DNA from: Burkholderiaceae bacterium
GTDB lineage: Bacteria > Pseudomonadota > Gammaproteobacteria > Burkholderiales > Burkholderiaceae_E
Assembly: GCA_035540315.1 (NCBI GenBank)
Contig: DATLGW010000287.1
Span: 1 to 29,286, forward strand
Direction of reading: 5' to 3'
Length of the DNA stretch: 29,286 nucleotides
This document shows, piece after piece, positions 11,867 to 29,286 of this stretch; the first letter of the stretch is position 1; each line of letters opens with the position of its first letter. Position numbers and translations under genes: made by a program. The notes beneath the pieces were generated by a model. The model ran no database searches. It was not told where the DNA came from and saw only the letters and a program-made list of their open reading frames with translations.

Positions 11867-11888
11867 CAGCGGCTCGTTCGGCAGGCCT

Positions 11889-12863: not shown

Positions 12864-12938
12864 CGGGTCTTTCCTTTCGTGTGAGGTGTGTGGCTGGATC
12901 AGGAGCGGCGCGAGCCATGGAGGCTGCGCGAACCCTGG

Positions 12939-12951
12939 CGCAGGTTGACTT
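12939..12951 (+). repeat. 13-bp direct repeat, copy 1 (CGCAGGTTGACTT)
   Basis: Identical to 13888-13900; contains a TTGACT -35-like hexamer. Confidence 0.5.
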
Positions 12952-13027
12952 TATTCAATAGCATTTCCTCGTGCAACAACCTCCGTGGAGCGCCCCGACA
13001 GATGACCCCGCTTGACAGGAGCCCACG

Positions 13028-13897
13028 ATGCCGCGACCGCTGATCGTCGCGGCCGCGCAGACCGGCAGCGTCGCCGAAGGCGGCGCTGCCGCCGTCGCCG
13101 AGGTCGCGCACGGCATGCTGGACGAGGCCGGCCGCGCCGGCGTGCGGCTGCTGACGTTCTGCGAGCTGTTCCTCGCGCCGTTCTTTCCGAACCGGCTCGA
13201 AGAGGACTTCGACCGCTGGTTCATGACCGTCGACGATCCGCTTGTCCGAGGCCTGCAGGACAAGGCGAAGCGGCTCGGGATCGCGCTGGTGCTGCCGATC
13301 GCCGAGCGCTCGAACGCCGGCTACTTCAACAGCGCAATGGTGCTCGACGAAAACGGCGCGCTCGCCGGCATCTACCGCAAGACCCACATCCCCGCCTACT
13401 TCCCGACCGCCGGCGAAGGCGGCACCGGCAGCTTCGAGAAGATGTACTTCACGCCGGGCAGCACGCTCGACGTCTACGCCGTCGCAGGCACGCGTATCGG
13501 CATCCAGATCTGCAACGATCGGCTGTATCCGGAGGCGTCGCGCGTGCTGGCGCTGAAGGGCGCGGAGTTGATCGCGATGCCGATCAGCTTCTCGACCTAT
13601 GCCGATCCCACACACCGCGCATCGATCTGGGAGGTGCCGCTGCGCGCGCGGGCATACGAGAACGGCGTGTTCGTGGTGGCGTGCAATCGCGTGGGGGTCG
13701 AGGGGCCGCGGCACCATCTGGGGCGCAGCCTGGTCGTGGATCCGCGGGGGATGATCGTGCGGGAGGCGGGGACGGAGAAGGTGGAGTTGCTGGTGGTGCA
13801 GCTCGATCTGGACGATGTGGCCAAGGCGCGCAAGAAGTTTCCTTGGTGGCGGGATCGGCGGCCGGACTTGTATGGGTCACTGGGGAACGCAGGTTGA
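13028..13897 (+). CDS. Nitrilase-superfamily amidase (N-carbamoyl-amino-acid / N-carbamoylputrescine amidase-like)
   Basis: Triad motifs CELF, YRKTHIP and ICNDRLYPE; NRVGVEG and RDRRPDLY; AGGAG RBS at 13017-13021. Confidence 0.88.
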   Translation: MPRPLIVAAAQTGSVAEGGAAAVAEVAHGMLDEAGRAGVRLLTFCELFLAPFFPNRLEEDFDRWFMTVDDPLVRGLQDKAKRLGIALVLPIAERSNAGYFNSAMVLDENGALAGIYRKTHIPAYFPTAGEGGTGSFEKMYFTPGSTLDVYAVAGTRIGIQICNDRLYPEASRVLALKGAELIAMPISFSTYADPTHRASIWEVPLRARAYENGVFVVACNRVGVEGPRHHLGRSLVVDPRGMIVREAGTEKVELLVVQLDLDDVAKARKKFPWWRDRRPDLYGSLGNAG

Positions 13898-13900
13898 CTT
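13888..13900 (+). repeat. 13-bp direct repeat, copy 2 (CGCAGGTTGACTT)
   Basis: Includes the amidase TGA stop; identical to 12939-12951. Confidence 0.5.
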
Positions 13901-13909
13901 GCGAGAGCG

Positions 13910-14404
13910 ATGGCTCAATCCGACCGACCACCGCCCGACGCGACCTGGCTCGAACTGAAGATTCCGCCGCCCGCCGTGGTGGCGATCGCGGCCGCAGCGA
14001 TGTGGCTGCTGCCGGCGGTGGCGACGACACCGCGCCTCGGTCCGCTGCACGCGTGGTGGGCTGCTGCGCTCGCAGCGGCGGGCGCAGCGGTCGCGCTGGC
14101 CGGTGTGATCGAGTTTCGGCGCGCGCACACGACGATCGACCCGAGGCGCCCGTCGGCCGCGTCGGCCCTGGTCGTACAAGGCATCTATCGGTACACGCGC
14201 AACCCGATGTACCTCGGCATGCTGATCGTGCTGCTCGGGTGGGCGGTGTACCTGGCGAAGCTGTCGGCGTTCCTGGCGCTGCCGCTGTTCGTCTGGTACC
14301 TGACCGTCTTCCAGATCCGCCCCGAGGAACGGGCGCTGCGCGAGCGATTCGGCGCCGAGTTCGATGCCTATGCCGCGCGCGTACGGCGCTGGGTGGGTCG
14401 CTGA
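13910..14404 (+). CDS. Isoprenylcysteine carboxyl methyltransferase / phospholipid methyltransferase family membrane protein
   Basis: LVVQGIYRYTRNPMYLG and IRPEERAL...FGAEFDAYAARVRRW motifs; hydrophobic segments. Confidence 0.9.
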   Translation: MAQSDRPPPDATWLELKIPPPAVVAIAAAAMWLLPAVATTPRLGPLHAWWAAALAAAGAAVALAGVIEFRRAHTTIDPRRPSAASALVVQGIYRYTRNPMYLGMLIVLLGWAVYLAKLSAFLALPLFVWYLTVFQIRPEERALRERFGAEFDAYAARVRRWVGR

Positions 14405-14649
14405 ACATCAAGGATCAGGAAGCGCACCAGCTTGCGCAGGCGCTTGCGAAGGCAACCGGAGAAACCATGACGCAAGCGGTCAAAAAGGCCCTGCAGGAGC
14501 GGCTCCAGCGCGTTCGCAGCCAGCGCCGCGATTCACGCGTCGTTGCGGCAGACTTGCTCGCAATCGGTCGACGGTGCGCGCGAAGCGCCAAGAAGCGTCC
14601 TCTCGATCACACCGCCATCCTCTACGACGATCGAGGAATACCGCGGTGA
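14398..14649 (+). pseudogene. vapB: VapB-type antitoxin (LNIKD family) lacking a canonical start codon
   Basis: SLNIKDQEAHQLAQALAKATGETMTQAV...LYDDRGIPR*; the codon before TCG CTG AAC is GGG rather than ATG; GTGA overlap with vapC. Confidence 0.75.
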
Positions 14650-14852
14650 TCGTCGACACTTCGGCGGTGCTCGCCATCCTGTTCGACGCGCACGTGGCCC
14701 GTCAGGCGTATGCCGAGTTTGGAAAAGGCCGGCACCGTGCCGGACTCGACTTCGGTGATTGCTTCGCCTACGCACTGGCCAAGACGACAGGGGAGAAGCT
14801 GCTGTTCAAGGGCGATGACTTCCGCAAGACGGATGTCGAGTCGGCGCTCTGA
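14646..14852 (+). pseudogene. vapC: VapC PIN-domain toxin with a large in-frame internal deletion (68 aa left)
   Basis: MIVDTSAVLAILF is joined directly to DAHVARQAYAEFGKGRHRAGLDFGDCFAYALAK..GEKLLFKGDDF. PIN toxins of this type are typically about 130 aa. Confidence 0.85.
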
Positions 14853-14967
14853 GCGCGAGGCGCAAGCGGAATAGGTCTGCCCGATCAGCCGTTGCGAGCC
14901 GCCGGATCGAACGGCGGGCAGCTGGTACCGGCGGCGATACGGGGCGGGACTGCACCTCGATGCAGCG

Positions 14968-16137
14968 TCATCCGGCCGCCAGCATGGCAGCCAGCTCCTC
15001 GAGCCCGATGGCCTCTACGTTCTCGCCCCTCCGGTAGCGTTCAGCCCCGGAGTAGACGATGAATGCGCGCTGTGGTTTCAGATCCTCGCAGGCGTAGTGG
15101 AACCCCTTGTCGAGTGTCGGAGCGCGGCCCCGCTTTATCTCCACGGCCCACAGCTTGCCGCCGGGCATCTCCAGCACCAGATCGACCTCGGCGCCGGCAG
15201 ACGTGCGGTAGAAGTACGCCGGAGTACGTTCCGGTGCCGCGCCGAGAAGATTTTCGATGACGAACCCTTCCCAGCTTCCGCCGACGACCGGGTGGCCCAG
15301 CACCGCTTCGCGATCGTCGAGCCGCAGCAGCGTGTGCACGATCCCACTGTCGCGCACGTAGACCTTCGGCGATTTCACCAGCCGCTTGCCGACGTTGGCG
15401 TGCAAAGGCGGCAGCCGTCGCACCAGCAGCAGGTCCACCAGCAGATCGAGATAGCGGGCGACGGTCTTGCCATCGACACCCAAGCCGCGTGCCAGCTGCG
15501 CCGCATTCAGCGTCGTGCCCTGCAGATGCGCAAGCATGGTCCAGAAGCGGCGCAGCGCTTCCGCCGGCACGCGCGGCCCGAGCTGCGGGATGTCTCGCTC
15601 CAGATAGGTCCGAATGAAATTTGCGCGCCAGATCGCGCTGGCCTCGTCTGAACCGGCAAGGTAGCTGTCGGGGAATCCGCCCCGGACCCAGAGCTTGTCC
15701 GGCGAGTCATCGTCGACTTCGAGCACGTTGAACGGCCCCAATTCGACATACGCGATGCGGCCGGCGAGCGTTTCGCCGGACTGTCTGATCAAGTCCACCG
15801 ACGCCGAGCCCAGCAGCAGGAACCGCCCGGCGCGGCGATTGCGGCGGCGCCCCTTGTCGATCAGGCCGCGCAGGGTCTGGAACAGCTCCGGCATGCGCTG
15901 GACTTCATCCAGGATGACCAGCGTGTTTTCGTGAGCCGACAGATACAGCGCCGCATCAGCCAGCTTCTCGCGATCCGCCACGTCCTCGAGATCGAGATAG
16001 ACGCTGGACCGCACTGCGGCGATCTGTTCGGCCAGCGTCGTTTTTCCCGCCTGCCGAGGCCCGAGCACCGCCACCGCCGGGAATTGGTCCAACCGGGCGC
16101 GGACGATCTGCTGCTTGTGGCGAGGGACGATCAACAT
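14968..16137 (-). CDS. AAA+ ATPase with DUF4143 domain
   Basis: GPRQAGKTT Walker A, ILDEVQ Walker B, FLLLGSAS, RGGFP, YLERDI, VKSPKVYVRDSG and YFYRTSAGAEVDLVL...AVEIK (PD-(D/E)XK-like tail). ATG 16137 or 16161. Confidence 0.92.
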   Translation of the reverse strand: MLIVPRHKQQIVRARLDQFPAVAVLGPRQAGKTTLAEQIAAVRSSVYLDLEDVADREKLADAALYLSAHENTLVILDEVQRMPELFQTLRGLIDKGRRRNRRAGRFLLLGSASVDLIRQSGETLAGRIAYVELGPFNVLEVDDDSPDKLWVRGGFPDSYLAGSDEASAIWRANFIRTYLERDIPQLGPRVPAEALRRFWTMLAHLQGTTLNAAQLARGLGVDGKTVARYLDLLVDLLLVRRLPPLHANVGKRLVKSPKVYVRDSGIVHTLLRLDDREAVLGHPVVGGSWEGFVIENLLGAAPERTPAYFYRTSAGAEVDLVLEMPGGKLWAVEIKRGRAPTLDKGFHYACEDLKPQRAFIVYSGAERYRRGENVEAIGLEELAAMLAAG

Positions 16138-16173
16138 TGCAATTATGGACTTCAAAGCCATAAATGCAATGTT
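16133..16173. promoter_or_regulatory. AT-rich inverted repeat covering the AAA-DUF4143 start codon
   Basis: AACATTGCAATTATGG-acttcaaag-CCATAAATGCAATGTT: 16-bp arms with one mismatch. Confidence 0.7.
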
Positions 16174-16260
16174 TGAGGCAGTCCCCGCGGGTGCGTCGGG
16201 TACGATTCCCCGACACCGTCGAGCCCCCTGTCACAACCCGCCAACGCCGCCCTGCAACGG

Positions 16261-18801
16261 ATGCCTGCCGCAACCGCACCAAGCCCCCGCCCGGTCAACG
16301 CTGCTCGTGCTAAAGCCGCCGAGCCGCGGGTATCGCGCACACGCCCGTCCGCTGAACTGTCGATCGAGGAATGGCAGATCCGCCTGCGCAAGCAGTTCGG
16401 TCGTGACCAGAACTTCAAGCTCGAGAACCTCGGTACGGACCCGGTGTTCTCCGAATTCGCCGTCACGAATCCCGCGACCGGTGGCCGCTACCGTGTCGCG
16501 GTCCGCGGCCCCGGGCTCGGCGAGAACTACTGCTCGTGCCCGGACTTCGCGACGAACGAGTTGGGCACCTGCAAGCACGTCGAGTTCACGCTGGCAAGGC
16601 TTGCGCGCCGGCGCGGCAAGGAACTCACGCGCAGCTATCTGCCGCCCTACAGCGAGATCCATCTGCACTACGGCAGCGCACGAAACGTACGCTTCCGCGC
16701 CGGCAGCACGTGTCCGCCCGGGCTGATGGCGAAGGCCGCGCGGATTTTCGACCAGTCCAGTGGTTGGACGCTGCCGTCCGACCGGGTGGCGGAACTGCCG
16801 CGGTTTCTTGCGGACGCTCGCAAGTTCGGGCACGAGGTCCGCTGCTATGACGACGTCCTCGCTTTCACCGCCGAAGTCCGCGATGCACAGAACCGCCGCC
16901 GGGTGCTCGACGCCGCGTACCCGAATTCCAAGAAGCTGCTGTTGAAGGGGCTGCTCGCGGTCGATCTGTACCCTTACCAGGCGCAAGGGGCGTTGTTCGC
17001 AGTCCGCGCCGGCCGCGCGCTACTCGCCGACGAGATGGGGCTCGGCAAGACGGTGCAGGCGATCGCTGCGGCCGAGCTGATGCACCGTCATTTCGGGGTC
17101 GAGCGCGTGCTGGTCGTGTGCCCGACCTCGATCAAGCACCAGTGGCAGCGCGAGTTCGCCCGCTGCGCTCGGCACGAGCCGCAGGTGATCGGCGGGCCGC
17201 GCGCCGCGCGGCAACAGCAATACCGTGACCCGGTGCCGATCAAGATCACGAACTACGACACGCTCGCACGCGACCGCGACCTGATCGGCGCTTGGGCGCC
17301 CGATCTCGTCATCGTCGACGAGGCGCAGCGCGTGAAGAACTGGAATACGGTTGCCGCCCGGGCGCTGCGGCGCATCGACAGCGCGTATGCGCTGGTGCTG
17401 ACCGGCACGCCGCTCGAGAACCGGCTCGAGGAGCTGCTGTCGATCGTGCAGTTCATCGACCGTCACCGATTGGGCCCGACCTGGCGGTTGCTGCACGAGC
17501 ACCAGGTGCGGGACGAGTCCGGCCGCGTGGTCGGCTACCGCGATCTCGACCGGATCGGCGCGAGCCTCGCCCCGATCATGCTGCGCCGGCGAAAGACCGA
17601 GGTGCTCGACCAGTTGCCGCCGCGGATCGAGAACACGCTGTTCGTGCCGATGACCCCGCAGCAGCGGGTCCACCACGACGAGAATGCGGAGACGGTCAGT
17701 CGAATCGTGTCGCGCTGGCGCAGGACCGGGTATCTGTCCGACGCCGACCAGCGCATCCTCACCTGCGCGCTGCAGAACATGCGGATGTCGTGCAACAGCA
17801 CGTACCTGCTCGATCATCGGACCGATCACGGCACGAAGGCCGACGAACTCGCGACGCTGCTGGCGGAGCTGTTCGAGGAGCCCGGCGCGAAGGCCGTCGT
17901 CTTCAGCCAATGGCACCGGATGCACGAGCTGATCGCGCGGCGACTCGAAGCCAACGGCTGGGGCTACGTGCTGTTCAGCGGCGATGTGCCAGGCGAGCAG
18001 CGCGGCGCGCTGGTCGATCGCTTCCGCGATGATCCCGGCTGTCGCGTCTTCCTGTCGACCGATGCGGGCGGCGTCGGGCTGAACCTGCAGCACAGCGCAG
18101 CCACGATCGTGAACATGGACCTGCCGTGGAACCCGGCTGTGCTCGAGCAGCGGATCGGCCGCGTCTACCGGCTCGGGCAGCAGCGCACGGTGCAGGTGGT
18201 GAACTTCGTGTCGCAGGGGACGATCGAGCAGGGCATGCTGTCGCTGCTCGCGTTCAAGAAGTCGCTGTTCGCCGGCGTGCTCGACGGCGGCGACAGCGAG
18301 ATCTTTCTGCAGGGAACGCGGCTGTCGAAGTTCATGAACGGCTTGGAGAAGGCGCTGGCGCGTGCGGGGCAACCGGAGGAAGTCTCAGTCGCCGAAACGG
18401 CAGCCGAGCGCAACCCTGCCGAGGGGGACGAAGTCGCCCCGGTCGCTGATGCGGATGCAGCCGACGCAGGCTCAGCGCCTGCGGATGCCAGCGGGACCGA
18501 GAACACCTCCCCGCAACGGACATCGGACGGCGCAACGAGTGTGAATCCGTGGGCGCCGCTGATCGAAGCCGGGCTGCAGGTCGTGCACGCGCTCTCGGCA
18601 GCGGCTCGGGAGGACAAGCGCGCCGCCGACGGCGCCGAGCCGAACGGCAGCCGCCCGGCCGATGACCCCACGCCCTGGATCGAAACCGACGCGCGAACGG
18701 GCAAGGCGTATCTGAAGCTTCCGGTTCCCGAGCCGGCGGCCGTGCAACGACTCGCGGACGCGCTGCTGGGATTGCTGCAACTGGGATCAGGGAGGAAGTA
18801 G
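16261..18801 (+). CDS. SNF2-family (SF2) helicase/ATPase with N-terminal SWIM zinc finger
   Basis: YCSCPDF...TCKH (SWIM CxC-xn-CxH), LADEMGLGKT, IVDEAQ, LTGTPLEN, STDAGGVGLNLQ, DLPWNPAVLEQRIGRVYRLGQ; acidic linker and short C-terminal domain. Confidence 0.93.
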   Translation: MPAATAPSPRPVNAARAKAAEPRVSRTRPSAELSIEEWQIRLRKQFGRDQNFKLENLGTDPVFSEFAVTNPATGGRYRVAVRGPGLGENYCSCPDFATNELGTCKHVEFTLARLARRRGKELTRSYLPPYSEIHLHYGSARNVRFRAGSTCPPGLMAKAARIFDQSSGWTLPSDRVAELPRFLADARKFGHEVRCYDDVLAFTAEVRDAQNRRRVLDAAYPNSKKLLLKGLLAVDLYPYQAQGALFAVRAGRALLADEMGLGKTVQAIAAAELMHRHFGVERVLVVCPTSIKHQWQREFARCARHEPQVIGGPRAARQQQYRDPVPIKITNYDTLARDRDLIGAWAPDLVIVDEAQRVKNWNTVAARALRRIDSAYALVLTGTPLENRLEELLSIVQFIDRHRLGPTWRLLHEHQVRDESGRVVGYRDLDRIGASLAPIMLRRRKTEVLDQLPPRIENTLFVPMTPQQRVHHDENAETVSRIVSRWRRTGYLSDADQRILTCALQNMRMSCNSTYLLDHRTDHGTKADELATLLAELFEEPGAKAVVFSQWHRMHELIARRLEANGWGYVLFSGDVPGEQRGALVDRFRDDPGCRVFLSTDAGGVGLNLQHSAATIVNMDLPWNPAVLEQRIGRVYRLGQQRTVQVVNFVSQGTIEQGMLSLLAFKKSLFAGVLDGGDSEIFLQGTRLSKFMNGLEKALARAGQPEEVSVAETAAERNPAEGDEVAPVADADAADAGSAPADASGTENTSPQRTSDGATSVNPWAPLIEAGLQVVHALSAAAREDKRAADGAEPNGSRPADDPTPWIETDARTGKAYLKLPVPEPAAVQRLADALLGLLQLGSGRK

Positions 18802-18815
18802 GTGCGAAACGATGA

Positions 18816-19135
18816 CATGAGCGCGGGCCATGCGCTGCTGCAAACGGGTGTGGCGTCATCGGCGTGCTGTCGTTCGCAGATGCCCGCCCGCGGGGTGCGT
18901 CGGAGAAAAATTACAACGAGGCCGACCAGTTCCTGGTCTCCGATCTCGTTTCGGCGGTCCGATTTGCACGTGGCGATCTTCGCTTCCACGCCGACTACAT
19001 CCGGGGCCGGCGGCTGAAGACCGAACTTGTCATCCGCGCAAACGGGACCGCGACACTCTGGGTCGGGGCAAGTCTACCCCTCGATGGATCGCGCGATTCA
19101 AGGGCGAGAGGATCGCGCGCGTGGTCCGGCAATGA
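18816..19135 (+). pseudogene. Frameshifted remnant of a hypothetical gene downstream of the SNF2 helicase
   Basis: Frame A gives VLSFADARPRGASEKNYNEADQFLVSDL...LRFHADYIRGRRLKTELVIRANGTATL; frame B continues TLGRGKSTPRWIARFKGERIARVVRQ* (stop at 19135). The switch is near 19050-19060. The protein-like reading is my impression, not a database match. Confidence 0.5.
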
Positions 19136-19211
19136 TTGTCCGCGACCGCGAAGTCGCAAATGTCGTCACGCTATTCCGGCGCCGCGTCGTTCGTGCCGCC
19201 CCATATCGAAG

Positions 19212-19495
19212 ATGGAGACTCTGCGTAAGCGGATGGAACGGCAGCGGCCAATGGTGTCGACACGTCACGCATGCCGCAGAATGTCATCGAAGATCTAAAA
19301 AGCGTGGCTCCGCTGAAAGGGTTCTCAGGCTATCAAGTCCTGCTGCGTGCGTATGTCGGCGCCGGCCTGCGAGAGGATCTCGAGCAGTTCGAAGAGTCCG
19401 CGGTCGAGCGGCTGATTCAGCGACTGCGGGAAAGTGGAGTTCCGGAAGAGACATTACGCAGAGCCGCCTCGGAGACACGCGGAAGGAAACGCTGA
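19212..19495 (+). pseudogene. CopG/RHH-like putative antitoxin with a 1-nt frameshift
   Basis: METLRKRMERQRPMVS (ATG 19212) and MPQNVIEDLKSVAPLKGFSGYQVLLRAYVGAGLREDLE (ATG 19271) are 59 nt apart; one added base near 19260 restores a single ORF. Confidence 0.65.
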
Positions 19496-19594
19496 GTGTC
19501 ACCAGCTTGTCCGCGCGCGGTCCCGACAGCTCCTGCTCCTCGATCCGCCCGCTGTGAAGCAGATGACCGAAGACAGGGCCCAACGTCAGCTCTG

Positions 19595-19606
19595 ATGCGT
19601 ACGCAT
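19595..19606. promoter_or_regulatory. Perfect 12-bp palindrome upstream of the second vapB
   Basis: ATGCGTACGCAT; TATGAT -10-like hexamer at 19617-19622. Confidence 0.5.
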
Positions 19607-19644
19607 ATCGCTGATTTATGATGCGGAAGCAGCGGAACGATACC

Positions 19645-19883
19645 GTGCGGACCACCATCGACATCGACGAGGATGCTTTGCTCGCAGCCAAGCAGATCGC
19701 GGCGCGCGAGCGGATCCCGCTTGGGCGAGCCGTCTCTCGCTTGATCCGCCAGGTGCAGAGGCCGACGTGCGCCGGAAGCCCGAGCCGCAGCCGCTGCGCG
19801 GACGGTTCGCACTGCTGCCGCGCCGCGAAGAGGCGATCACGCCCGAGCACGTACGGAACCTGATGGAGCGCGCAGGCATCTGA
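19645..19883 (+). pseudogene. vapB: VapB-type RHH antitoxin (MRTTIDIDED family), frameshifted
   Basis: GTG 19645 gives RTTIDIDEDALLAAKQIAARERIPLGRAVSRLIRQ; a second frame gives ...RGRFALLPRREEAITPEHVRNLMERAGI* (TGA 19881-19883). One extra G at CAGGTG (about 19752) restores the ORF. Confidence 0.8.
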
Positions 19884-19924
19884 TGCGGGCGCTACTGGAC
19901 GTCAACGTCTGGGCCGTCCTTTAG
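19883..19924 (+). pseudogene. vapC: 5' stub (13 codons) of a VapC PIN toxin
   Basis: TGATG coupling to vapB; MRALLDVNVWAVL* matches the LLDVNV PIN N-terminus; ends at the convergent jetD stop. Confidence 0.75.
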
Positions 19925-21096: not shown

Positions 21097-24000
21097 TCGT
21101 CTGTCGCGGATCTTCCGCGTGCTGCGGATCGGTCGTCTGCGCCGGCAACTTCAGCCGCTGCTGCTGCGCGTCGTACTCGATCATCAGCGCCGACGAGTGG
21201 CGGCGGTCGCGGATGTGGACGTAACACGCGCCGCCGATGAAGGGCTCGAGCGTCATCACCGACTTCAGCGGCGTGGCGACGATCATCTGAAAGCCGAACT
21301 CCTTGAAGATGTTCATTGCGATCGCGGTGAACTCGGCATCGGCCTTGTCGAAAGCCTCATCCAGCACGACGGTCGCGTACGCGGGCAGCGCGCGGTATGC
21401 GCCGCCCAACTGGTAGCGCAGCGCCGCTGCCAGGCACGTCGCGGTGAGCTTCTGTCGCTGTCCGCCGGACTTGCCCGCGCCGCTGCGGTAGATCTCCTGC
21501 TCCACGCCGTTCGAGTCGAGCTCGCGCGCGACGAACTCCACGTGCTGGCGCACGTCGAGCACCTGCGCGCGCCAGTGGCGATCGATGCCGTCCTGGCTCG
21601 ACAGGCGTCGCACCAGTTCGCTCAGGATCGAGAACCGGTGCTCGTCCCGGCCGGCGTCGTCGCTGAACGAGTGGCTCAGCGCGTCCTTGAGCGTCGTGCG
21701 GAACACGCGCACGTCGGCGAGCGGCCGCTCGATCGCGTCGATCACCAGGTGCGTTCCCGGGCCGAACTCCGCCGACTGCAGACTCTCGTTCACCAGCTCG
21801 AGCCGCTCGAGGATCGCGCGGCGCTCCTGGTCGAGCCGGCTCGACAGCATCGTCAGGTTCTGGTCGCTCTGCTCGCGCAGCAGGACCTTGAAACGGGTCT
21901 CGAAGCGCGGCAGCCCGTCGGTCTGCAGGCGACGCAGCTTCGCGAAGAAGTCGTCGGCGCTCTCGATCGTCGCATCCAGCCCGCCGCTCTCGGTGGGCCA
22001 GCGCCGGTTGAAGTCGGCGAACCGCGATTCGATCGTCGAGCGCAGCCGTCCCTGTTCCTCGACCAGGCGAGCTTTCTCGGCGCCCAGCTCGCGCACGACC
22101 TGCGTGGTAACCTGATCAATCGACTCCAGCGTGATTGCGCGGCCGGCTCGTGCGTAGCGCTCGGTGAGCCGCTCGCGCTGCAGTGGCGTCAGCGCGATCC
22201 CGACGATCTCCCGCGGCACCGCGTCCAGGCGCTTGCGCAGCTGCTCGATGTCGCGCTCGATCGCAGCGGCCGCCACCCCGGCCCGCTTGCTGTCGTCCCG
22301 CGCGCGATCGTACGCCGACTGCCGATCCGCGATGTCCGCGTCCAGCCGCGCCAGATCCGGTCGCGACGCCTTCTCCGACTGGATTCGCTGCGACAGTGCG
22401 GCAATCTTGCCGGCGGCGGACGCGACGTCGATCTCCGACCACGTCAGGTTGGCCAGCGACTGGCACGCGAGCAGCTGGGCGCGTTGCCGATCCTCGTCCG
22501 CCTTCGCGGCTTCGATCTGCCGCTTCAGCGACTCGATCTCGTTCGCCAGCTCGAGCGCGCGTTCCTCGAACAACGCCCGCTTGCTGCGGTTGTCGAAGCC
22601 CAGCACCCAGCGGCTGCGGTCGTCGACGCGTCCGCGGTCGTCCTTCTCGTGTCGCGACGGCCCGTGCTTGACCTGGCCCTGCAGCGTCACCGCCATCCGC
22701 GCGTTGCGGAACGCCTGCAGCGATTCGGTGCACTCATAGTCGAAGCGATCCCGAAGCTGGTCGCGAAGCCATTCCGCGTGCGGCCCCGCCGCGACCTTGA
22801 GCTTGCGGGCCAGGGAGTTCGCCGGCAAGGCGGCGCCCTGACCGGGCGCACGAGCGGCAGCCGCCGCACGCCCGCCGTCCGACGATGCGCGAGCGCCGGG
22901 CTGCTGCGGCATCACGCGCAGGTAGACGAGGCGCTCGCCGAGGTGGCGCTCGTTCAGGTGCGAAGACACCGCCGCGTAGTGGCGGTCGTCGACCAGCAGC
23001 GACAGCGCGAATCCGCGCAGCACCCGCTCGATCGCGCCTTGCCATCGGCGCTCGTCCTCATGCACATCGAGCAGCTCGGCGACGAAAGGCAGCCGGTCTT
23101 CGCCGATCCCGATCGCCGCGGCGAGCGCCGCACGCAGCTCGAGCATCCGCGCGTCGACATTCGAGCGCTGCCGCTCCATTGCCGCAATCTCGGCGCGGGC
23201 CTGCTGGAACTGCTCGCTCGCATCGCGCAGCCGACCCTTCAGCTCGTCCTTGCGCGCTTCGAGCGCGCCGGCGGCTTCGTTCGCGTCGGCGAGTTGCTGG
23301 CGCGCCGTTCCCGCGAGCCGCACGAACGGCTGCGCCGCGTCCGGCAGCGTCCAGCCCATCGTGCGGCACGCGTCGGCAGCCCGGTGACGCCGCTGCAGCC
23401 GCGCGAGCTTGTCCTCCTCGGCCTCGGCCGCCTGCTTCTGCAGCTGCTCGATCAACCCGCCGCCCATGCCGTGCCGCCGGTCCTGCAGCTCGCGCAGCGT
23501 CTGGAACAGCTGCTCCTCGAGCCCCGCCAGCCGCTGCGCCTCCTGGCGCGCGCCCTCGGCCTGGTCCTGCAGCTCCGACAGCCGCGCCTGCAGCAGCGAT
23601 TCGCGCTGTCGTTCGCGGAAGGCCTCGACCCCCGCCAGCGTCTCGTCGAGCTCGAGCTGAACGCCGCGCGCGCGCTCGAGCGCATCGGCTGCGTCGCGCG
23701 CAGGCTCGAGCGTCTCGATCTGCTGGCGCGCCGCGACCACCGCCTGGTGCGCCGAGTTCAGCTCGCCGAATTCCGCCACCAGGCGGTCCGCCACCTCGAA
23801 GGTCTGCGGCACGTCGAGCATGAAGTCGCGCAGGAAGGTGTTCAGGTCGCCGAGATTCTTCGCCGACTGCGTCTTGTGCAGCAGCCGCAGCGCGAGTTCG
23901 TTGTCGATGCCGAGCAGCCGCCGGAACCGTTCCTGATAGCCGCTGAACTCGTCGTGAACGAACGCATCGGGCAGCTCCCGCTTGAGTCGCCGCACGTCGA

Positions 24001-24538
24001 AGTCGGCCTTCGCGAAGAATTCGAGATTGCGAATATCGATTTCGCGCTCGAGCACGAGGTAGATGCGCTTGACGTCGGTGCTGGCCGTCGATCGGCCGCG
24101 GATCCACAGCAGCTGCGCGAGAACCACGACACGGCCGTGTCGGTTGCGGTACGTCTCTGCGATTGCCGACCAGGTCGTGCCGCTGCGCAGGTATTGCGAC
24201 AGGTACTCGCCCGATTCGCCCGTCTGCTGCGCCCAGGCGCCGCGGACATAGGTGACCAGGCTGCGGTCTCTGCCGTGCCGTTCGGCCTCGCGAGCGGCGA
24301 CGTTGAAATCGACCCACCGCGGCGGCGTCAGCAATGCGGCGTGCGCATCGAGAATCGTCGACTTGCCCGATCCCGACGGACCGACGAAGAGGAAGCCGCT
24401 CTCGGCGATCGGAAAATCGAAGACATCCGAGAACGTGCCCCAGTGATAGGTCTGGATCCGCGCGAGCCTGAACTGCTCGGCCGCGGCATCCAGGTCGACG
24501 CAAAGTTGGCGCTGCTCCGACGTCAGGTCGTTCTTCAA
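21068..24538 (-). CDS. jetC: Wadjet JetC (SMC/MukB-like ATPase)
   Basis: HWGTF, Walker A GPSGSGKST, long coiled coils, signature KSGGQ, Walker B VVLDEAF; TTG start with a TTGA overlap. Confidence 0.96.
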   Translation of the reverse strand: MKNDLTSEQRQLCVDLDAAAEQFRLARIQTYHWGTFSDVFDFPIAESGFLFVGPSGSGKSTILDAHAALLTPPRWVDFNVAAREAERHGRDRSLVTYVRGAWAQQTGESGEYLSQYLRSGTTWSAIAETYRNRHGRVVVLAQLLWIRGRSTASTDVKRIYLVLEREIDIRNLEFFAKADFDVRRLKRELPDAFVHDEFSGYQERFRRLLGIDNELALRLLHKTQSAKNLGDLNTFLRDFMLDVPQTFEVADRLVAEFGELNSAHQAVVAARQQIETLEPARDAADALERARGVQLELDETLAGVEAFRERQRESLLQARLSELQDQAEGARQEAQRLAGLEEQLFQTLRELQDRRHGMGGGLIEQLQKQAAEAEEDKLARLQRRHRAADACRTMGWTLPDAAQPFVRLAGTARQQLADANEAAGALEARKDELKGRLRDASEQFQQARAEIAAMERQRSNVDARMLELRAALAAAIGIGEDRLPFVAELLDVHEDERRWQGAIERVLRGFALSLLVDDRHYAAVSSHLNERHLGERLVYLRVMPQQPGARASSDGGRAAAAARAPGQGAALPANSLARKLKVAAGPHAEWLRDQLRDRFDYECTESLQAFRNARMAVTLQGQVKHGPSRHEKDDRGRVDDRSRWVLGFDNRSKRALFEERALELANEIESLKRQIEAAKADEDRQRAQLLACQSLANLTWSEIDVASAAGKIAALSQRIQSEKASRPDLARLDADIADRQSAYDRARDDSKRAGVAAAAIERDIEQLRKRLDAVPREIVGIALTPLQRERLTERYARAGRAITLESIDQVTTQVVRELGAEKARLVEEQGRLRSTIESRFADFNRRWPTESGGLDATIESADDFFAKLRRLQTDGLPRFETRFKVLLREQSDQNLTMLSSRLDQERRAILERLELVNESLQSAEFGPGTHLVIDAIERPLADVRVFRTTLKDALSHSFSDDAGRDEHRFSILSELVRRLSSQDGIDRHWRAQVLDVRQHVEFVARELDSNGVEQEIYRSGAGKSGGQRQKLTATCLAAALRYQLGGAYRALPAYATVVLDEAFDKADAEFTAIAMNIFKEFGFQMIVATPLKSVMTLEPFIGGACYVHIRDRRHSSALMIEYDAQQQRLKLPAQTTDPQHAEDPRQTNEPQPTAAS

Positions 24539-25275
24539 CGGACGCGCTCGCCGTCAGTGAGATCGTCCGCGGTAAGCTCGTCGTCCGGGGGCTCGTCGTC
24601 CGGCGACTCGTCCTCCTCCGGCTCGTCACCGTCGTCCGCCGGCCCCTCGTCGTCGTCGCGGCCCGGCAGCTTCGCATACGCGCCCGCCAGCGCCTGTATC
24701 TGCTCGGCCGAGAACAGCAGCTTCAGCGTCGGCGACACCTCGTAGCGGCCGTCGCTGCCGCGGATCTTGCGCAGCAGCCCGAGGCGCTTGGCCTTCTCGA
24801 TCGCGTTCTCCGCGTGGCGCGCGAACTTCGCGTGATCGACGTCGGCCTGGCGGCGGAACAGCGCAAGGTGCTCTTGCATCTCCAGCAGCGACAGCACCGC
24901 GCGCTCGCCCTGCACGTCCGCCTGGGTCAGTCGCTGGCGCAACATCAGCAGCAGCACCGAATCCAGGAAAGTCAGCTGTGCGCGACGCAGCAGCACCGGA
25001 ACGTCCAGATCGCCCTCGCTCGCGATCTGCCGCGTGAACGCCACCTGCTGGTCGCGGTCGATCACCAGCTCCAGGAACAGCTCGTGCAGCCGTGACCGGA
25101 CGACCGACTCGTCGCGCACCAGCACCGGCCACAGCCGCGACTGCCGGCGCGCGTCGATCGACGGGCCGAGCAGCAACTGAACCAGAACCCGCCGCGTGTC
25201 GATCGGCAGCTGCCCCTCGTCGCCTGCGAACGCGGCGCTCGCCGACCCGGCCACTTCACTCGGCCAGCTCTGCAT
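24535..25275 (-). CDS. jetB: Wadjet JetB (DUF4194, MukE-like)
   Basis: LVQLLLGPSID, SRLHELFLELVID, VAFTRQ, LTFLDSVLLL.LRQ and EVSPTLKLLF motifs; lies between jetA and jetC. Confidence 0.93.
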   Translation of the reverse strand: MQSWPSEVAGSASAAFAGDEGQLPIDTRRVLVQLLLGPSIDARRQSRLWPVLVRDESVVRSRLHELFLELVIDRDQQVAFTRQIASEGDLDVPVLLRRAQLTFLDSVLLLMLRQRLTQADVQGERAVLSLLEMQEHLALFRRQADVDHAKFARHAENAIEKAKRLGLLRKIRGSDGRYEVSPTLKLLFSAEQIQALAGAYAKLPGRDDDEGPADDGDEPEEDESPDDEPPDDELTADDLTDGERVR

Positions 25276-26719
25276 AACGCTCCCTCAGGAAGTAGATCAT
25301 CGGAACCCGCGCACGCCGCTCGCTGCCGTCGGCGCCCTGCCACGCGACGATCTCGGTCTCATCGCTCAATTGCCCATGCCGCGCACCCAGCGCCACGTAG
25401 CCGACCACGCTGCCCAGCCCCTGTTCGGCCGGGAACGCCTGCAGCAGCTGCGCGATCGAGGTCTGGCTGCACTGCGCCAGCATCGCGCGGATGTGCTGCC
25501 TGAGCGTGCGAAAGTCGATCTCGGACTGGCGCACCAGCTCGCCCACCACGTCCAGCCCGATCTCGGCCGGCGCGGCATCGTGCATCCCCGGCGAATCCAG
25601 GCGCAATGCGGGATCGTACATGACCCACTGCGACACCGACCGCAGCTGGCTGCTGGTCAGCGTCAACCACAGGTCGAGCGGTCGAGTCGGCCGGCCAGCG
25701 TCGCGCGCCTCGAGCGCAGCGCGCTGCGCATCCCGCAGCAACGAATGCAGTCGGCGCTGCTCGAGGTATTCGCGGCTCTGCACGAAACGCTTCAGGCTGC
25801 GCGCGAAGTGCTGCAGCACGTCGTGCACGCTGCCGCCCTCGTCGAGCAGCACCGCAGTCAGCCGCAACAGGAATCGGCGCTCGCGCGGCTGCAGGCTGCG
25901 GGAGAACGGCCGCGACATCACGTCCGACAGCGACCCTTCCAGCGTCGACGACTGTTCCGGATCCGTCAGCAGCCGCCAGAACGCCGCGAAGGTGCGGCCA
26001 GCGTCGCTGTCGGCGATCAGATCGACACCCGCGAACAGCGCATCGAGCACCTCGCCGCGGGCGCCGTCACTGTCGATCAGGCTCTCGCGCAGCTGGCGAT
26101 TCAGCTTGTCGAATTCGTCACGCACGCGCCGGAAGTCGCCGGCCAGCTCGTCGGCGAGAGCGATGATCTCGCGCGCTCGCTCCAGCGCCCGGTCGTCCGG
26201 CAGCGAGCGGACGACCCCCGCCTGGACGGCCTGGATCTCGCGGTCGATCCGCTCGCGCTCGGTTGCCAGCGCCGCGAGCCGCGTGTCGGGGTTGGTGTCC
26301 GTTTCCTCTGCCAATCGCGCCAGCTGCCGGATCACCGTCGCAAGCCGGCTCTCGGTCGCCGCCACGCGCGGCGCCTCCAGCGTCGCGGCGAACCTGATCG
26401 CCTGGGCAGCCTCGGACGTCAGCTCGTATTCCTCCTCGCTGGCCCCGGGCCGAAAGTGCCGGGTCAGCCACCCCTGCCCCAGCCAGTCGGCGACGTACGC
26501 CTGCGCGGGCTGCGGCAAGTCTTCCCCGACCGCGCGCAGCTGATCCAGCTCGCGTCCGAGCCGCTCGTGCAGCACCGAGCTCGGCAGCGTCTTCTCTCCG
26601 TCCGCCAGCAACGCCTGCAGCAGCGCGAGGATCGCCGGTGCCTTGTCGGCGGCGAGCAGGCGCCACAGCGGCCGGCTTCGGTGCTTTCGAAGAATGTTGA
26701 CGGTGCGCGTGGCGGTCAT
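25256..26719 (-). CDS. jetA: Wadjet JetA (DUF3375, MukF-like)
   Basis: WRLLAADKAP, YVADWLGQGWL, ATESRL, SDAGRTFAAFW and SLKRFVQSREYLEQRRL motifs. ATG 26719 preferred; the track ORF starts at GTG 26779. Confidence 0.93.
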   Translation of the reverse strand: MTATRTVNILRKHRSRPLWRLLAADKAPAILALLQALLADGEKTLPSSVLHERLGRELDQLRAVGEDLPQPAQAYVADWLGQGWLTRHFRPGASEEEYELTSEAAQAIRFAATLEAPRVAATESRLATVIRQLARLAEETDTNPDTRLAALATERERIDREIQAVQAGVVRSLPDDRALERAREIIALADELAGDFRRVRDEFDKLNRQLRESLIDSDGARGEVLDALFAGVDLIADSDAGRTFAAFWRLLTDPEQSSTLEGSLSDVMSRPFSRSLQPRERRFLLRLTAVLLDEGGSVHDVLQHFARSLKRFVQSREYLEQRRLHSLLRDAQRAALEARDAGRPTRPLDLWLTLTSSQLRSVSQWVMYDPALRLDSPGMHDAAPAEIGLDVVGELVRQSEIDFRTLRQHIRAMLAQCSQTSIAQLLQAFPAEQGLGSVVGYVALGARHGQLSDETEIVAWQGADGSERRARVPMIYFLRERYAELAE

Positions 26720-26808
26720 GCGGGCAATGGTAGGACGAGGCGTTTCCGTCGGTCCAATTGTGGGCTGATACGGGCTCACCGGACGAGCTCGAACGGCAGT
26801 ACGGCTGC

Positions 26809-26837
26809 TTGCTTTCTATCCGTCAGTGACGTATAGT
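26809..26837 (+). promoter_or_regulatory. Sigma70-type promoter of higBA, probably giving a leaderless mRNA
   Basis: TTGCTT (26809-26814) - 17 nt - TATAGT (26832-26837) - 7 nt - ATG 26845; no SD; palindrome TGAC-gtata-GTCA overlaps the -10. Confidence 0.6.
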
Positions 26838-26844
26838 CATCCGC

Positions 26845-27159
26845 ATGTATACGCTCATCGAGACGCCCACTTTCGTCGCTGATGCGAACGAGCTGTGGAC
26901 TGAAGATGAGAGGCTGGAGTTCTTCGAATGCCTAGCAAACAATCCGGATGCCGGGGACGTCATCCCGGGAAGCGGCGGATGCCGCAAGGTACGCTGGTCG
27001 CGCGCGGGGTCCGGGAAGCGAGGCGGAGCTCGGGTCATCTACTTCACGCGGCTCGCCGCCGGGGAGATCTGGCTCCTGTTGGCGTACGCGAATTCCGTTC
27101 GAGATGATATTCCTGCTCATCTGCTCAACGCAATTCGTGAGGAGATCGAAGATGGGTAA
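26845..27159 (+). CDS. higB: RelE/ParE-superfamily toxin (HigB-like)
   Basis: IETPTF, NPDAGDVIPGSGGCRKVRW, GKRGGARVIY and LLLAYA motifs; toxin-first gene order. Confidence 0.9.
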   Translation: MYTLIETPTFVADANELWTEDERLEFFECLANNPDAGDVIPGSGGCRKVRWSRAGSGKRGGARVIYFTRLAAGEIWLLLAYANSVRDDIPAHLLNAIREEIEDG

Positions 27160-27451
27160 CCGCACCCCCAAGAAATCGGCAGGTGAAGCGCTGGGGCTCA
27201 AGCTGCTGAAATCGGTCCGTGAAATGAAGGCGGGTCAGGCGGCTCGCGTGACGGAGGTCGCGCCCAACGAAGTTGCTCTGGCCCGGCATAGATCGGGGCT
27301 CTCGCAAAGCGAATTCGCGGACGCCCTGGGAATCTCCAAGCGCACTCTTCAAGAGTGGGAGCAAGGTCGGCGCTCCCCATCGGGTGCGGCGCAAACCCTG
27401 ATTCGCATCGCCCAGCGCCATCCCGAAGTGGTAAGGGAGGCGCTAGAGTAA
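27152..27451 (+). CDS. higA: HTH (Xre) antitoxin, HigA-like
   Basis: ATG 27152 overlaps the toxin end; ARHRSGLSQSEFADALGISKRTLQEWEQGRRSPSGAAQTLI is an HTH_3 signature. Confidence 0.92.
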   Translation: MGNRTPKKSAGEALGLKLLKSVREMKAGQAARVTEVAPNEVALARHRSGLSQSEFADALGISKRTLQEWEQGRRSPSGAAQTLIRIAQRHPEVVREALE

Positions 27452-27522
27452 GCATCACGGCGTACACCGGAACCGCGCGCCCTGGGCGATGCCGCCTTTG
27501 CCGCAAGACGCTGAATCGCGCG

Positions 27523-27930
27523 CTACGACTGCCTCCGCGGCCTGCCGCCCTTGGCGCCGTTGCGCCGCGCCGCGGCAGCCTTGGCCTCGGATCGGCGAGC
27601 GCCACCGATCCTGCCGATCTGGGACATCCATTGCCGGGTACCCGACAACCCGCGGACAAGCGCGGGAACGTAGAGATCCGCGTCGAGCTGGGGCCAGTGC
27701 AATCCCAGGCCCGTGGGGGAAATCCGGATATCCCGCAACTTCGTCGCCGGCGCATTCGCGAGTCCTTGCGCCTGCGCGACGGGGAATGAGAAAGCCCAGT
27801 CGGTATCCAGCTCGACCAGAACCCTGCCTCTGGAGTACTTAGCGGCAATCGCCTTTGGGCTGCGTTGCAGCACACGGCGCCCGCGCGCGTTCGCTTTGCG
27901 GAACTCGCTGTCGGTGGGACGATCAGCCAT
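27523..27930 (-). CDS. DUF2442-domain protein (predicted antitoxin) with basic C-terminal tail
   Basis: ISPTGLGLHWPQLDADLYVPAL motif; tail SEAKAAAARRNGAKGGRPRR. Confidence 0.85.
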   Translation of the reverse strand: MADRPTDSEFRKANARGRRVLQRSPKAIAAKYSRGRVLVELDTDWAFSFPVAQAQGLANAPATKLRDIRISPTGLGLHWPQLDADLYVPALVRGLSGTRQWMSQIGRIGGARRSEAKAAAARRNGAKGGRPRRQS

Positions 27931-28168
27931 GTATCTCGCCCCAGCGACCGCACAACAGCGGCAGCCGGCCTCGAACCTGATGGCTTGCGGACGCTATTTC
28001 TCGTTCCGAGAAGCCGAAGTTGTCCCGCAACCGCACCCGCCCCAGAGCGCACAGTAGCTCGAAAACCGCCTCCGCGTGCGGCGCGATGACGTGCACGTGC
28101 GGGGGTCGATGGTCGTTCGAATAAATCACGACTCGCCAGCCCTGCTGCGTTCTGAAGATCGTCGCCAA
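27923..28168 (-). CDS. DUF4160-domain protein (HicA-like predicted toxin)
   Basis: VVIYSNDHRPPHVHV motif; TTG start at 28168 (track ORF starts at 28204); 8-nt overlap with DUF2442. Confidence 0.85.
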   Translation of the reverse strand: MATIFRTQQGWRVVIYSNDHRPPHVHVIAPHAEAVFELLCALGRVRLRDNFGFSEREIASASHQVRGRLPLLCGRWGEIHG

Positions 28169-28271
28169 TGATAACCCAACCGCGCTTCGGTTGTCATCTT
28201 GCAACGATCCTGCCGCCTCGGTGGGTGATGCGAAATTGTTCTGTCGCGCTAGCGCCGGTTTCCGGGAGGGC

Positions 28272-28300
28272 TTGACGTGTAATTATGAATCCCATAGCGT
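28272..28300 (+). promoter_or_regulatory. Candidate sigma70 promoter of the SMP-30 gene
   Basis: TTGACG (28272-28277) - 17 nt - TAGCGT (28295-28300); short palindromes CGTATACG and CGTAC-ga-GTACG just downstream. Confidence 0.45.
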
Positions 28301-28353
28301 ATACGTCTGCGTACGAGTACGGTGTCGGCGTGAGCTATGATTCGGTCATACTG

Positions 28354-29286
28354 ATGACGGTCCCTGCCGGCGCGGGGTTGAACCGCCCCGAGTGCCTCCT
28401 CGCCACCCGCCGCGGCGACCTCTACGCCGCCGACTTCCGCGGCGGCGTCGCCCACCTGCACCCCGACGCCACCACCACCCTCTACCTCGGCACCAAACCC
28501 GACGGCGCTCCGCTGAAGCCCAACGGCATCGCCCTCCGCCCCGACAACTCCTTCCTCATCGCCGACCTCTCCCCCGAATCCGGCGGCGTCTTCAACCTCT
28601 TCCGCGACGGCCGCGTCGAAGTCATTCTCGACCACCTCGACGGCAAGCCGCTGCCCCCGACGAACTTCGTCACCCAGGACTACGCCGGCCGCATCTGGGC
28701 CACCGTCAGCACCCGCCTCGTCCCCCGCGCGCTCGGCTACCGCAAGACCTGCAACGACGGCTTCATCGTCCTGATCGACGATCGAGGACCGCGCATCGTC
28801 GCCGACGGCTTGGGCTACACGAACGAGTGCGCGATCGATCCGCAGCACCGCTGGCTGTACGTGAACGAGACGTTCGGGCGCCGAATGTCGCGCTTCAAGT
28901 TGCTCGCCGACGGGCTGAGCCAACGCGAAACCGTCACCGAGTTCGGCGCCGGTACGTTCCCCGACGGCCTTGCGTTCGATGCGGCAGGCGCGCTGTGGGT
29001 CACGAGCATCGTCAGCAACCGCGTGATCCGCGTGTTGCCGGAGACGGGCGAGCAGCAGCTGATCCTGGAGGACTCTGACGCGGAGCACCTGGCCTGGGTC
29101 GAGCAGGCCTACCAGGCGGGCGAACTCGGCCGCCCGCACCTGGACACGGTCAAGAGCAAGACGCTGCGCAACATCTCGAGCCTCGCGTTCGGCGGCCCGG
29201 ATCTGCGCACCGCGTACCTCGGCTGCCTGCTCGGCGATTCGATCGCAACGTTTCGCACCGACGTTCCTGGCGCGCCGCCGGTGCAC
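28354..29286 (+). CDS. SMP-30/gluconolactonase/LRE-family beta-propeller (runs off the right edge)
   Basis: Manual translation: GLNRPECLL, KPNGIAL, PTNFV, DGLGYTNE, LYVNET, FPDGLAFD and SSLAFGGPDLRTAYL. ATG 28354 or GTG 28330. Not in the ORF track because it is truncated. Confidence 0.92.
   Translation, partial: MTVPAGAGLNRPECLLATRRGDLYAADFRGGVAHLHPDATTTLYLGTKPDGAPLKPNGIALRPDNSFLIADLSPESGGVFNLFRDGRVEVILDHLDGKPLPPTNFVTQDYAGRIWATVSTRLVPRALGYRKTCNDGFIVLIDDRGPRIVADGLGYTNECAIDPQHRWLYVNETFGRRMSRFKLLADGLSQRETVTEFGAGTFPDGLAFDAAGALWVTSIVSNRVIRVLPETGEQQLILEDSDAEHLAWVEQAYQAGELGRPHLDTVKSKTLRNISSLAFGGPDLRTAYLGCLLGDSIATFRTDVPGAPPVH

Follow-up and report, generated by a model that had tools for sequence, protein, structure and literature searches.

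What has pushed the silent positions of two genes towards opposite bases at the two borders of a single defence island? The question is raised by a window of 29,286 nt, which is the whole of contig DATLGW010000287.1 (C287), the longest of the 913 contigs of a metagenome-assembled genome from a soil bacterium of the Burkholderiaceae (GCA_035540315.1; 4.64 Mb, 69% G+C). In this window a carbon-nitrogen hydrolase gene (here called the amidase) and an SMP-30/gluconolactonase-like gene (SGL) flank an island of anti-plasmid and anti-phage genes, and the plus strand is poor in C at the 3' end of the amidase and poor in G at the 5' end of SGL. The anomaly is real; repair at the borders of the island, transcription and selection on RNA compete as its candidate causes. 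In the following, G3, C3, A3 and T3 denote bases at third codon positions and GC3 their combined G+C content, while z compares the observed G3-C3 with the expectation from the amino-acid sequence and the codon usage of the genome. The features on which the argument turns are these:

13028-13897, plus strand: carbon-nitrogen hydrolase gene ("amidase"), left flanking gene, 289 amino acids, Pfam CN_hydrolase E = 3e-50
13301-13510, plus strand: C3-rich, G-poor mid-amidase tract of the reverse sign to that at the 3' end; z = -4.8 (windows of 60 codons)
13616-13885, plus strand: amidase 3' tract, rich in G3 and poor in C, with its best-scoring segment at 13667-13885 (73 codons)
13898-28353: defence island, about 14 kb, anti-plasmid and anti-phage, from Pfam and PADLOC matches
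28354-29286, plus strand: SGL gene, right flanking gene, running off the contig end, Pfam SGL E = 2.6e-20
28384-28770, plus strand: C3-saturated, G-poor SGL tract, the most extreme of the genome; 129 codons, best-scoring segment

The mirror-image skew had been proposed in a sequence-only reading of the window, and all five of its hand counts are exact (G32/C9 at 13741-13800, C26/G16 at 13381-13440, C33/G11 at 28441-28500, G24/C17 at 29041-29100 and G36/C22 at 5071-5150). When raw GC skew was scanned without regard to reading frame, in 300-nt windows over the 4.64-Mb assembly, absolute values of at least 0.30 were reached in just three regions, namely the amidase 3' end (13626-13925, +0.31), the SGL 5' end (28351-28775, -0.40) and the gene for EF-Tu (+0.30). 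Raw skew ranges from +0.31 to +0.355 in the amidase tract and from -0.36 to -0.40 in the SGL tract, which puts SGL in first place genome-wide and the amidase in second or third. They have opposite signs and lie 14.5 kb apart, one at each border of the island. The polarity is likewise the one first described: the plus strand is C-poor to the left of the island and the minus strand to its right, and on both sides this is the strand whose 3' end faces the island. A weaker version of the pattern, suggested for the 3' end of the malonyl-CoA decarboxylase (MCD) gene, was not significant (z = +0.9 to +2.0).

The skew is not a by-product of the encoded proteins. In a crude gene set for the assembly (3122 open reading frames, 91,527 windows of 100 codons), the SGL tract has a z of -9.1, the lowest of all windows, and the amidase 3' end a z of +4.3, at the 99.97th percentile; allowing for the context of the next base changed neither result. 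Amino-acid composition, which had been named beforehand as a finding that would undo the case, is thus rejected as the cause, as both values are conditioned on the protein sequence. The silent sites of this genome are strongly G/C (GC3 about 0.9), and the tracts differ in which of the two bases is used. Specifically, SGL codons from 28375 to 28800 contain 0-3 G3 and 15-19 C3 per 20 codons, and the 129 codons of the tract end in G, C, A and T 14, 110, 3 and 2 times, respectively. The last 90 amidase codons (13628-13897) contain 12-17 G3 per 20 codons, and the best segment of 73 codons ends 49 times in G, 14 in C, 9 in T and once in A. On the plus strand the SGL tract is 46.5% C and 23.7% G, and these proportions are reversed in the amidase tract. 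The SGL tract has the shape of a plateau with a sharp end. Its segment score of 53 compares with at most 27 for the runners-up, which have nonsense-looking translations, and with about 21 for the best gene confirmed by Pfam.

An assembly artefact was rejected because the tracts recur in independent assemblies. Over 13111-13944, amidase tract included, the window is matched base for base by L045, a JGI contig of independent origin. Logan contigs from the best-matching soil run (X1) match the window exactly over 12500-13784 and 26343-28002, and no differences from the window are listed in this run for 28180-28810, which covers the SGL tract. Over 10453-13944 the sole difference between L045 and the window is a deletion of 64 nt at 13047-13110, at the amidase 5' end; it shifts the frame, a product of 267 amino acids is called, and it may be a strain variant or an assembly error. 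A mis-binned contig was also rejected, the tetranucleotide distance being ordinary (rank 39 of 146), and the nearest matches of the window's proteins are Comamonadaceae-like Burkholderiales. The true start of SGL is the ATG at 28354; alignments with orthologues begin near residue 28 of a longer open reading frame. Two overlapping frames, 28392-29078 on the plus strand and 28249-29286 on the minus strand, were dismissed as by-products of NNC codons, with low-complexity products of Arg/Pro or Gly/Ala/Val.

Substitutions in the two tracts

Orthologues at 75-83% amino-acid identity lack the skew at the matching codons. Third-position skew in the amidase tract is +0.50 in the window and -0.25 to -0.01 in the orthologues; in the SGL tract it is -0.77 compared with -0.14 to -0.36. 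On the sequences compared, the tracts are specific to this lineage. The amidase orthologues, at about 75% identity, come from Variovorax, Ramlibacter and Rhodoferax, and the closest relatives of SGL are 81-83% identical. Protein searches and a metagenome scan found no SGL relative above 83% amino-acid identity, and usable DNA from relatives extended up to about 82% amino-acid identity for SGL and about 83% for the amidase.

The shift had been described as largely synonymous. While it does fall mainly on third positions, positions 1 and 2 shift too, and near-invariant glycine and valine residues have been replaced. In the SGL tract, position 1 has a skew of +0.05 (orthologues +0.15 to +0.23) and position 2 one of -0.11 (orthologues +0.01 to +0.12); in the amidase tract the two values are +0.22 and +0.28, with orthologues at +0.02 to +0.22. 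At SGL sites of positions 1 and 2 that are near-unanimous among orthologues, the changes found only in the window comprise six G>C, two G>A and one each of G>T, C>A and T>C within the tract, with no C>G. G was therefore removed in 9 of 11 cases (p = 6e-4), and the rate of change is 3.9-fold that found elsewhere in the gene. The residues replaced in SGL (V14L, G38A, G64N and G72S) include glycines that are 92-99% conserved, and at these four positions the residue of the window occurs in 0-8% of 119 homologues (G38A and G64N in 0/119, V14L in under 1%). This rarity suggests new mutations, pointing to mutation pressure rather than to imported alleles or selection on the protein. Overall, the substitutions look like the result of a directional pressure at the DNA level that reaches even near-invariant Gly and Val codons.

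In the amidase tract, third-position changes found only in the window are six C>G, two C>T, one C>A and one G>C, and the amidase spectrum stands at seven C>G to four C>T. Twofold codons show the strand-specific loss in both tracts. In the amidase tract, 12 of 24 end in T where 5.2 are expected (p = 0.002). In the SGL tract none of 31 does (6.5 expected, p = 7e-4), and three of eight end in A (1.2 expected). T3 is modestly raised in the amidase tract only.

Several sources of such a pattern were considered and set aside. Translationally optimal codons do not explain the SGL tract, since the genes for EF-Tu and EF-G prefer G3 in fourfold boxes. A foreign or mosaic origin of SGL was rejected because both halves of the gene share their nearest homologues and its G+C content is normal; the two halves of the amidase also have the same nearest relatives, in a test of low resolution. 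The polymerase ImuC/DnaE2 as a source of G:C>C:G changes found no support in a published study.

Soil metagenomes provide a second SGL haplotype, about 93% identical over 28627-29005 (runs X2, X4 and X1), which is likewise C3-saturated over 28627-28780, where it overlaps the tract. Within 28627-28780 the two haplotypes differ by no synonymous and 4-5 nonsynonymous changes; in the adjoining downstream part the counts are 10 and 6, respectively (Fisher p = 0.09). One metagenome contig of run X1 carries the allele of the window to the left of 28811-28842, the inner edge of the SGL tract, and alleles of the second haplotype to the right. Little weight was given to it as a recombinant, as 28811-28842 is a run of 32 identical bases at which an assembler with k=31 may have switched paths. 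Also in X1, a patch at 28843-28985 has second-haplotype alleles between stretches identical to the window, from mosaicism or again an assembly path switch. At the other flank, three soil runs show a summed contig depth over 13060-13619 that is about 5-10-fold the depth of neighbouring bins, which indicates that other abundant organisms share DNA at least 90% identical with the conserved core of the amidase.

The island, its junctions and the relatives

Both tracts are confined to conserved coding DNA and abut breaks of synteny. The left tract ends, on its island side, at the amidase stop codon. In three relatives (L047, L049 and L050) a gene for an IclR regulator follows the amidase after 4-12 nt; it is missing from the window, where the PEMT-like gene and the island stand in its place (13898-13910). 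The left border of the island is thus a replacement or rearrangement and not a simple insertion. The right tract begins at 28384, with the first residues conserved among SGL orthologues (RPEC). Between these borders the island is arranged as follows:

13910-14404: PEMT-like methyltransferase gene (Pfam/PADLOC)
14364-14852: PIN gene (Pfam/PADLOC)
14968-16161, minus strand: DUF4143 ATPase, PADLOC candidate PDC-S01
16261-18801, plus strand: SNF2 helicase
19921-21096, minus strand: Wadjet jetD
21068-24538, minus strand: Wadjet jetC
24535-25275, minus strand: Wadjet jetB
25256-26779, minus strand: Wadjet jetA
26948-27451, plus strand: HTH/MqsA-like gene
27523-27930, minus strand: DUF2442 gene
between DUF2442 and SGL: spacer of 420 nt

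The jetABCD genes (19921-26779, minus strand) form a complete type I Wadjet operon. No integrase was found in the island (13898-28353). No inverted repeat was found between the flanks, the right junction has no palindromes of note, and the Rfam comparison gave no match to known RNA families. The Chi-like motif GCTGGTGG (the E. coli Chi octamer) occurs seven times in the window, compared with 1.2 expected from shuffles, but on both strands, and it was set aside as an explanation; one copy lies inside the amidase tract and none inside the SGL tract.

In relatives the two flanking genes belong to separate settings. The amidase lies in a conserved cluster, TctC-DAO-amidohydrolase-TctC followed by amidase-IclR, whereas SGL heads an SGL-GntR-dehydrogenase-DctPQM cluster with a variable upstream neighbour (TctC or FmdA). 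With amidase-IclR in one setting and TctC or FmdA before SGL in the other, the proposal that the flanking genes are a conserved pair around a variable site did not hold in the relatives examined, and a cargo-exchange hotspot at this place is not supported. Near the Wadjet locus of one relative (G106) a tract with a skew of -0.36 was rejected as an analogue because it lies in a low-GC foreign gene. The stretch (L101 14800-16000, about 2.5 kb from Wadjet) has about 50% G+C, a skew of -0.32 to -0.36 and one minus-strand gene, and looks like a foreign insert.

The contig as a whole shows a gradient from C3 at gene starts to G3 at gene ends. Its value is 1.83, compared with 0.22 genome-wide, the strongest of 40 contigs and borderline after correction for 40 tests; a second method gave 1.78 +/- 0.49. 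Averaged over all 22 contig genes, z is -1.1 in the first 50 codons and +0.8 in the last 50. Such a gradient is absent from the rest of the genome and from the relatives' loci tested, and a general 5'-to-3' gradient was dismissed as the cause of the tracts, being too weak both genome-wide and in two relatives (G007 and G011). In the left part of the contig (1-13900) most genes are C3-rich in their first and G3-rich in their last 50 codons, and additional tracts were seen at 2599-2778, 10456-10650 and 12681-12860.

Explanations for the tracts

The reading that we tentatively put forward, at somewhat less than an even chance, is a local, strand-specific loss of G or C that arises from asymmetric mutation or repair, is tied to both junctions and is masked by strong GC3 pressure. 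A single base would be lost from a single strand, over a long time and over a few hundred bases of conserved coding DNA beside each junction. At the start of SGL the plus strand would lose G, which is to say that the minus strand would lose C, and at the end of the amidase the plus strand would lose C. Because the silent sites of this genome are under pressure towards G/C, fourfold sites would mostly exchange the lost base for its G/C partner; A or T would come in only where the genetic code offers no alternative. The two tracts would share a cause, perhaps the repeated exposure or renewed synthesis of the strand with its 3' end towards the island, on the occasion of break repair or recombination at the island borders. 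Support for this reading comes from the rank and opposite signs of the two regions beside the island, from the end of each tract at the point where homology to orthologues gives out, from the lack of skew in orthologues, from the removal of G at conserved first and second positions of SGL, from the twofold codons, from the non-optimal codons of the SGL tract and from the C3 saturation of the second haplotype. The geometry is that of the sequence-only reading, the interpretation of which is partly supported; the chemistry, however, is not simple cytosine deamination.

A considerable number of observations weigh against this junction-tied loss, beginning with the evidence base, a single locus in a fragmented metagenome-assembled genome. 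The SGL tract retains a GC3 of 96% with A3 at about 2%, there is no A/T enrichment of the deamination type, and G:C>C:G changes outnumber G:C>A:T; deamination as the chemistry of the cytosine loss first proposed is not supported. Nor is synonymous divergence higher near the junction, as had been predicted: it affects 34% versus 33% of conserved codons in the two halves of SGL, relative to orthologues at 82%, at sites that may be near saturation. The island side of both junctions (the PEMT-like gene, DUF2442 and the 420-nt spacer) is unskewed, with G at 0.305 and C at 0.28 over 28050-28374 of the spacer, so that the reading must further assume young cargo, or cargo that gets replaced. The amidase and SGL are neighbours in no relative examined (a weak test, as the closest are only 75-83% identical), and neither an empty site nor other cargo between the flanks was seen in the relatives. 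No mirror-image pair of tracts was found at the Wadjet loci of 12 relatives (family members). Within the amidase itself there is the opposite tract at 13301-13510, with 11 G3 and 43 C3 in the 58 codons of 13316-13489; the count at 13381-13440, which had served as the within-gene baseline for the 3' end, is exact but falls within this opposite outlier. The codon-level score of the amidase 3' tract, 14.6, is equalled in ordinary core genes. Finally, the contig-wide gradient hints at a cause that is not tied to the island.

Some of these observations would be expected if the pairing were a coincidence, with the SGL tract a one-off, the amidase tract the tail of ordinary codon heterogeneity combined with a stretch of G-rich amino acids, and the mirror image a product of chance recognised post hoc. 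Codon-level tracts comparable to that of the amidase are found in an EamA transporter gene beside leuA, the 3' end of rpoN, cobQ, an ABC ATPase gene and the gene for class I aldolase (fba). Part of the raw skew of the amidase stems from conserved residues, as the values at positions 1 and 2 indicate, and both the opposite tract within the gene and the lack of an analogue at other Wadjet loci fit chance as well. Against this, a single 29-kb contig holds two of the top three raw-skew regions of the genome, of opposite sign and each ending at a junction, for which a rough estimate puts chance well under 1%, and both tracts are lineage-specific. Coincidence is an unlikely explanation, if one to be taken seriously. 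The tract at the rpoN 3' end, before hpf (C380 4003-4131), is strongly C3-rich, in a core gene pair, and has a polarity opposite to the contig-wide trend. A heteroduplex origin appears very improbable. Under this explanation, C.C mismatches invisible to MutS would enrich C on invading 3' strands during repeated ends-out exchange of cargo through the flanks. C-C mismatches escape mismatch repair (PMC5416779) and C-G<->G-C markers transform with high efficiency (PMC3375284). The sign of the skew fits invasion by the 3' tails of a linear donor, the G:C<->C:G swap is dominant with no loss of G+C, and the tracts start where homology starts. However, such a process only sorts existing alleles, while G38A and G64N are absent from all 119 homologues and V14L is found in under 1% of them; the nearest relatives do not differ between the two halves of either gene (the amidase test being of low resolution), and the bias of twofold codons towards T or A is left unexplained.

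Two further explanations involve RNA or its synthesis. If selection acted on RNA, the outward transcripts (rightward the sense RNA of SGL, leftward the antisense RNA of the amidase) would be kept C-rich, G-poor and unstructured, either as insulation of the neighbours resembling Rho-loading (rut) sites or for coupling SGL transcription to translation. Rut sites are by common acceptance marked by RNA that is rich in C, poor in G and unstructured (PMC6144790, PMC6407284). The outward strands of both tracts have this base composition, and the predicted minimum free energy is -121.5 for the sense RNA of the SGL tract, compared with -189 +/- 17 in 300 random gene segments, and -68 for the antisense RNA of the amidase tract, compared with -122 +/- 14. 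None of the 300 segments folds more weakly than either tract, and the opposite strands fold normally. Moreover, no convincing intrinsic terminators were found at the island ends, and where the tract is saturated the two haplotypes differ at 4-5 nonsynonymous sites and at no synonymous ones. On the other hand, the SGL tract undergoes translation, a process that normally protects RNA from Rho, and a length of about 400 nt is far beyond the requirements of a rut site. Glycines that are 92-99% conserved would hardly have been swapped out for the sake of the RNA, the first untranslated DNA after the outward-facing genes of the island is unskewed, and the 12 Wadjet loci of relatives hold no comparable pair. 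We regard selection on RNA as unlikely. An asymmetry linked to transcription, in which the non-template strand loses G for a few hundred bases from the start of each transcription unit and SGL is the extreme case, seems still less likely. First genes on the contig are indeed C3-rich at their starts, with a mean z over the first 50 codons (averaged by hand) of about -1.9 (n = 13) compared with about -0.3 for operon-internal genes (n = 9), and a small effect of the same sign exists genome-wide (-0.30 for divergent first genes and -0.09 for internal genes). Yet the genome-wide effect is tiny, orthologues that are likewise first genes have no tract, and the operon-internal DAO gene has one too. 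The classical transcription-associated bias, furthermore, removes C and not G from the non-template strand. For the amidase 3' tract, this explanation would require an outward antisense promoter in the left end of the island, and a search for one was negative.

Whether integrase-less island borders carry a lasting, strand-polar footprint of recurrent repair or recombination, with C lost on each side, the polarity of 3' tails and a swap between G and C, is doubtful at present. If they do, one genome sequence would suffice to locate places of cargo exchange by this footprint. It would provide a new marker for the swapping of defence cargo without site-specific recombinases, as well as an example of a local force at the DNA level that overrides protein constraint, given the conserved glycines lost. 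If selection for G-poor RNA lies behind the tracts instead, then Rho-type insulators of unusual length would be embedded in coding sequence in a high-GC bacterium. In either case, the SGL tract is a clean natural example of the near-complete synonymous recoding of part of a gene.

Comparison with known systems

The proposed junction-tied loss is similar in geometry to kataegis, the strand-coordinated mutation clusters that arise beside resected double-strand breaks in yeast and cancer. In both, the changes fall on C in the strand that has its 3' end towards the break, the other side is G-coordinated, and the affected length is hundreds of bases. The strand-coordinated switch from C to G across the island is present here. 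In contrast, a C>T-dominated spectrum with A/T enrichment is not found, although strong GC3 pressure could mask part of it, and the effect is not strongest next to the break and in unconstrained DNA, as the spacer, the PEMT-like gene and DUF2442 are unskewed. Known clusters are sparse, result from single events and are dominated by C>T and C>G changes in particular contexts. The tracts of this locus, on the other hand, have near-saturated silent sites, have been kept over evolutionary time with G+C preserved, and occur in a bacterium beside a postulated break.

The likeness to rut sites is that the predicted outward transcripts are C-rich and G-poor and would have very little structure over 70 nt or more. 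The tracts differ from rut sites in their length of about 400 nt, in the position of the SGL tract inside a reading frame and in the loss of conserved glycines. The 5' codon ramp is a further point of reference. It reportedly covers some 10-30 codons, genome-wide. Here the genome-wide residual is -0.02 per codon while the tract reaches about -0.7 over 129 codons, and the 73-codon tract sits at a 3' end, so the locus does not have the form of a ramp. With the position-dependent codon usage described for gene starts (Hockenberry et al., 2014; PMC4069614), the locus shares the use of unusual codons at a gene 5' end together with reduced RNA structure.

Integration hotspots between conserved core genes and islands of deviant composition are both well known. 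In this locus the deviant composition lies in the native flanks and not in the cargo, and the flanks are no conserved pair in the available relatives. The likeness to a hotspot consists of a defence island without a detected integrase, located between metabolic genes, with the break of synteny exactly at the gene ends. Lastly, GC-biased gene conversion and the marker effects of mismatch repair (PMC3375284) favour strong (G/C) over weak (A/T) bases symmetrically on both strands, whereas the bias described here is between G and C and is strand-polar. Despite this difference, the two resemble each other in being directional, selection-like forces at the DNA level that can oppose protein constraint.

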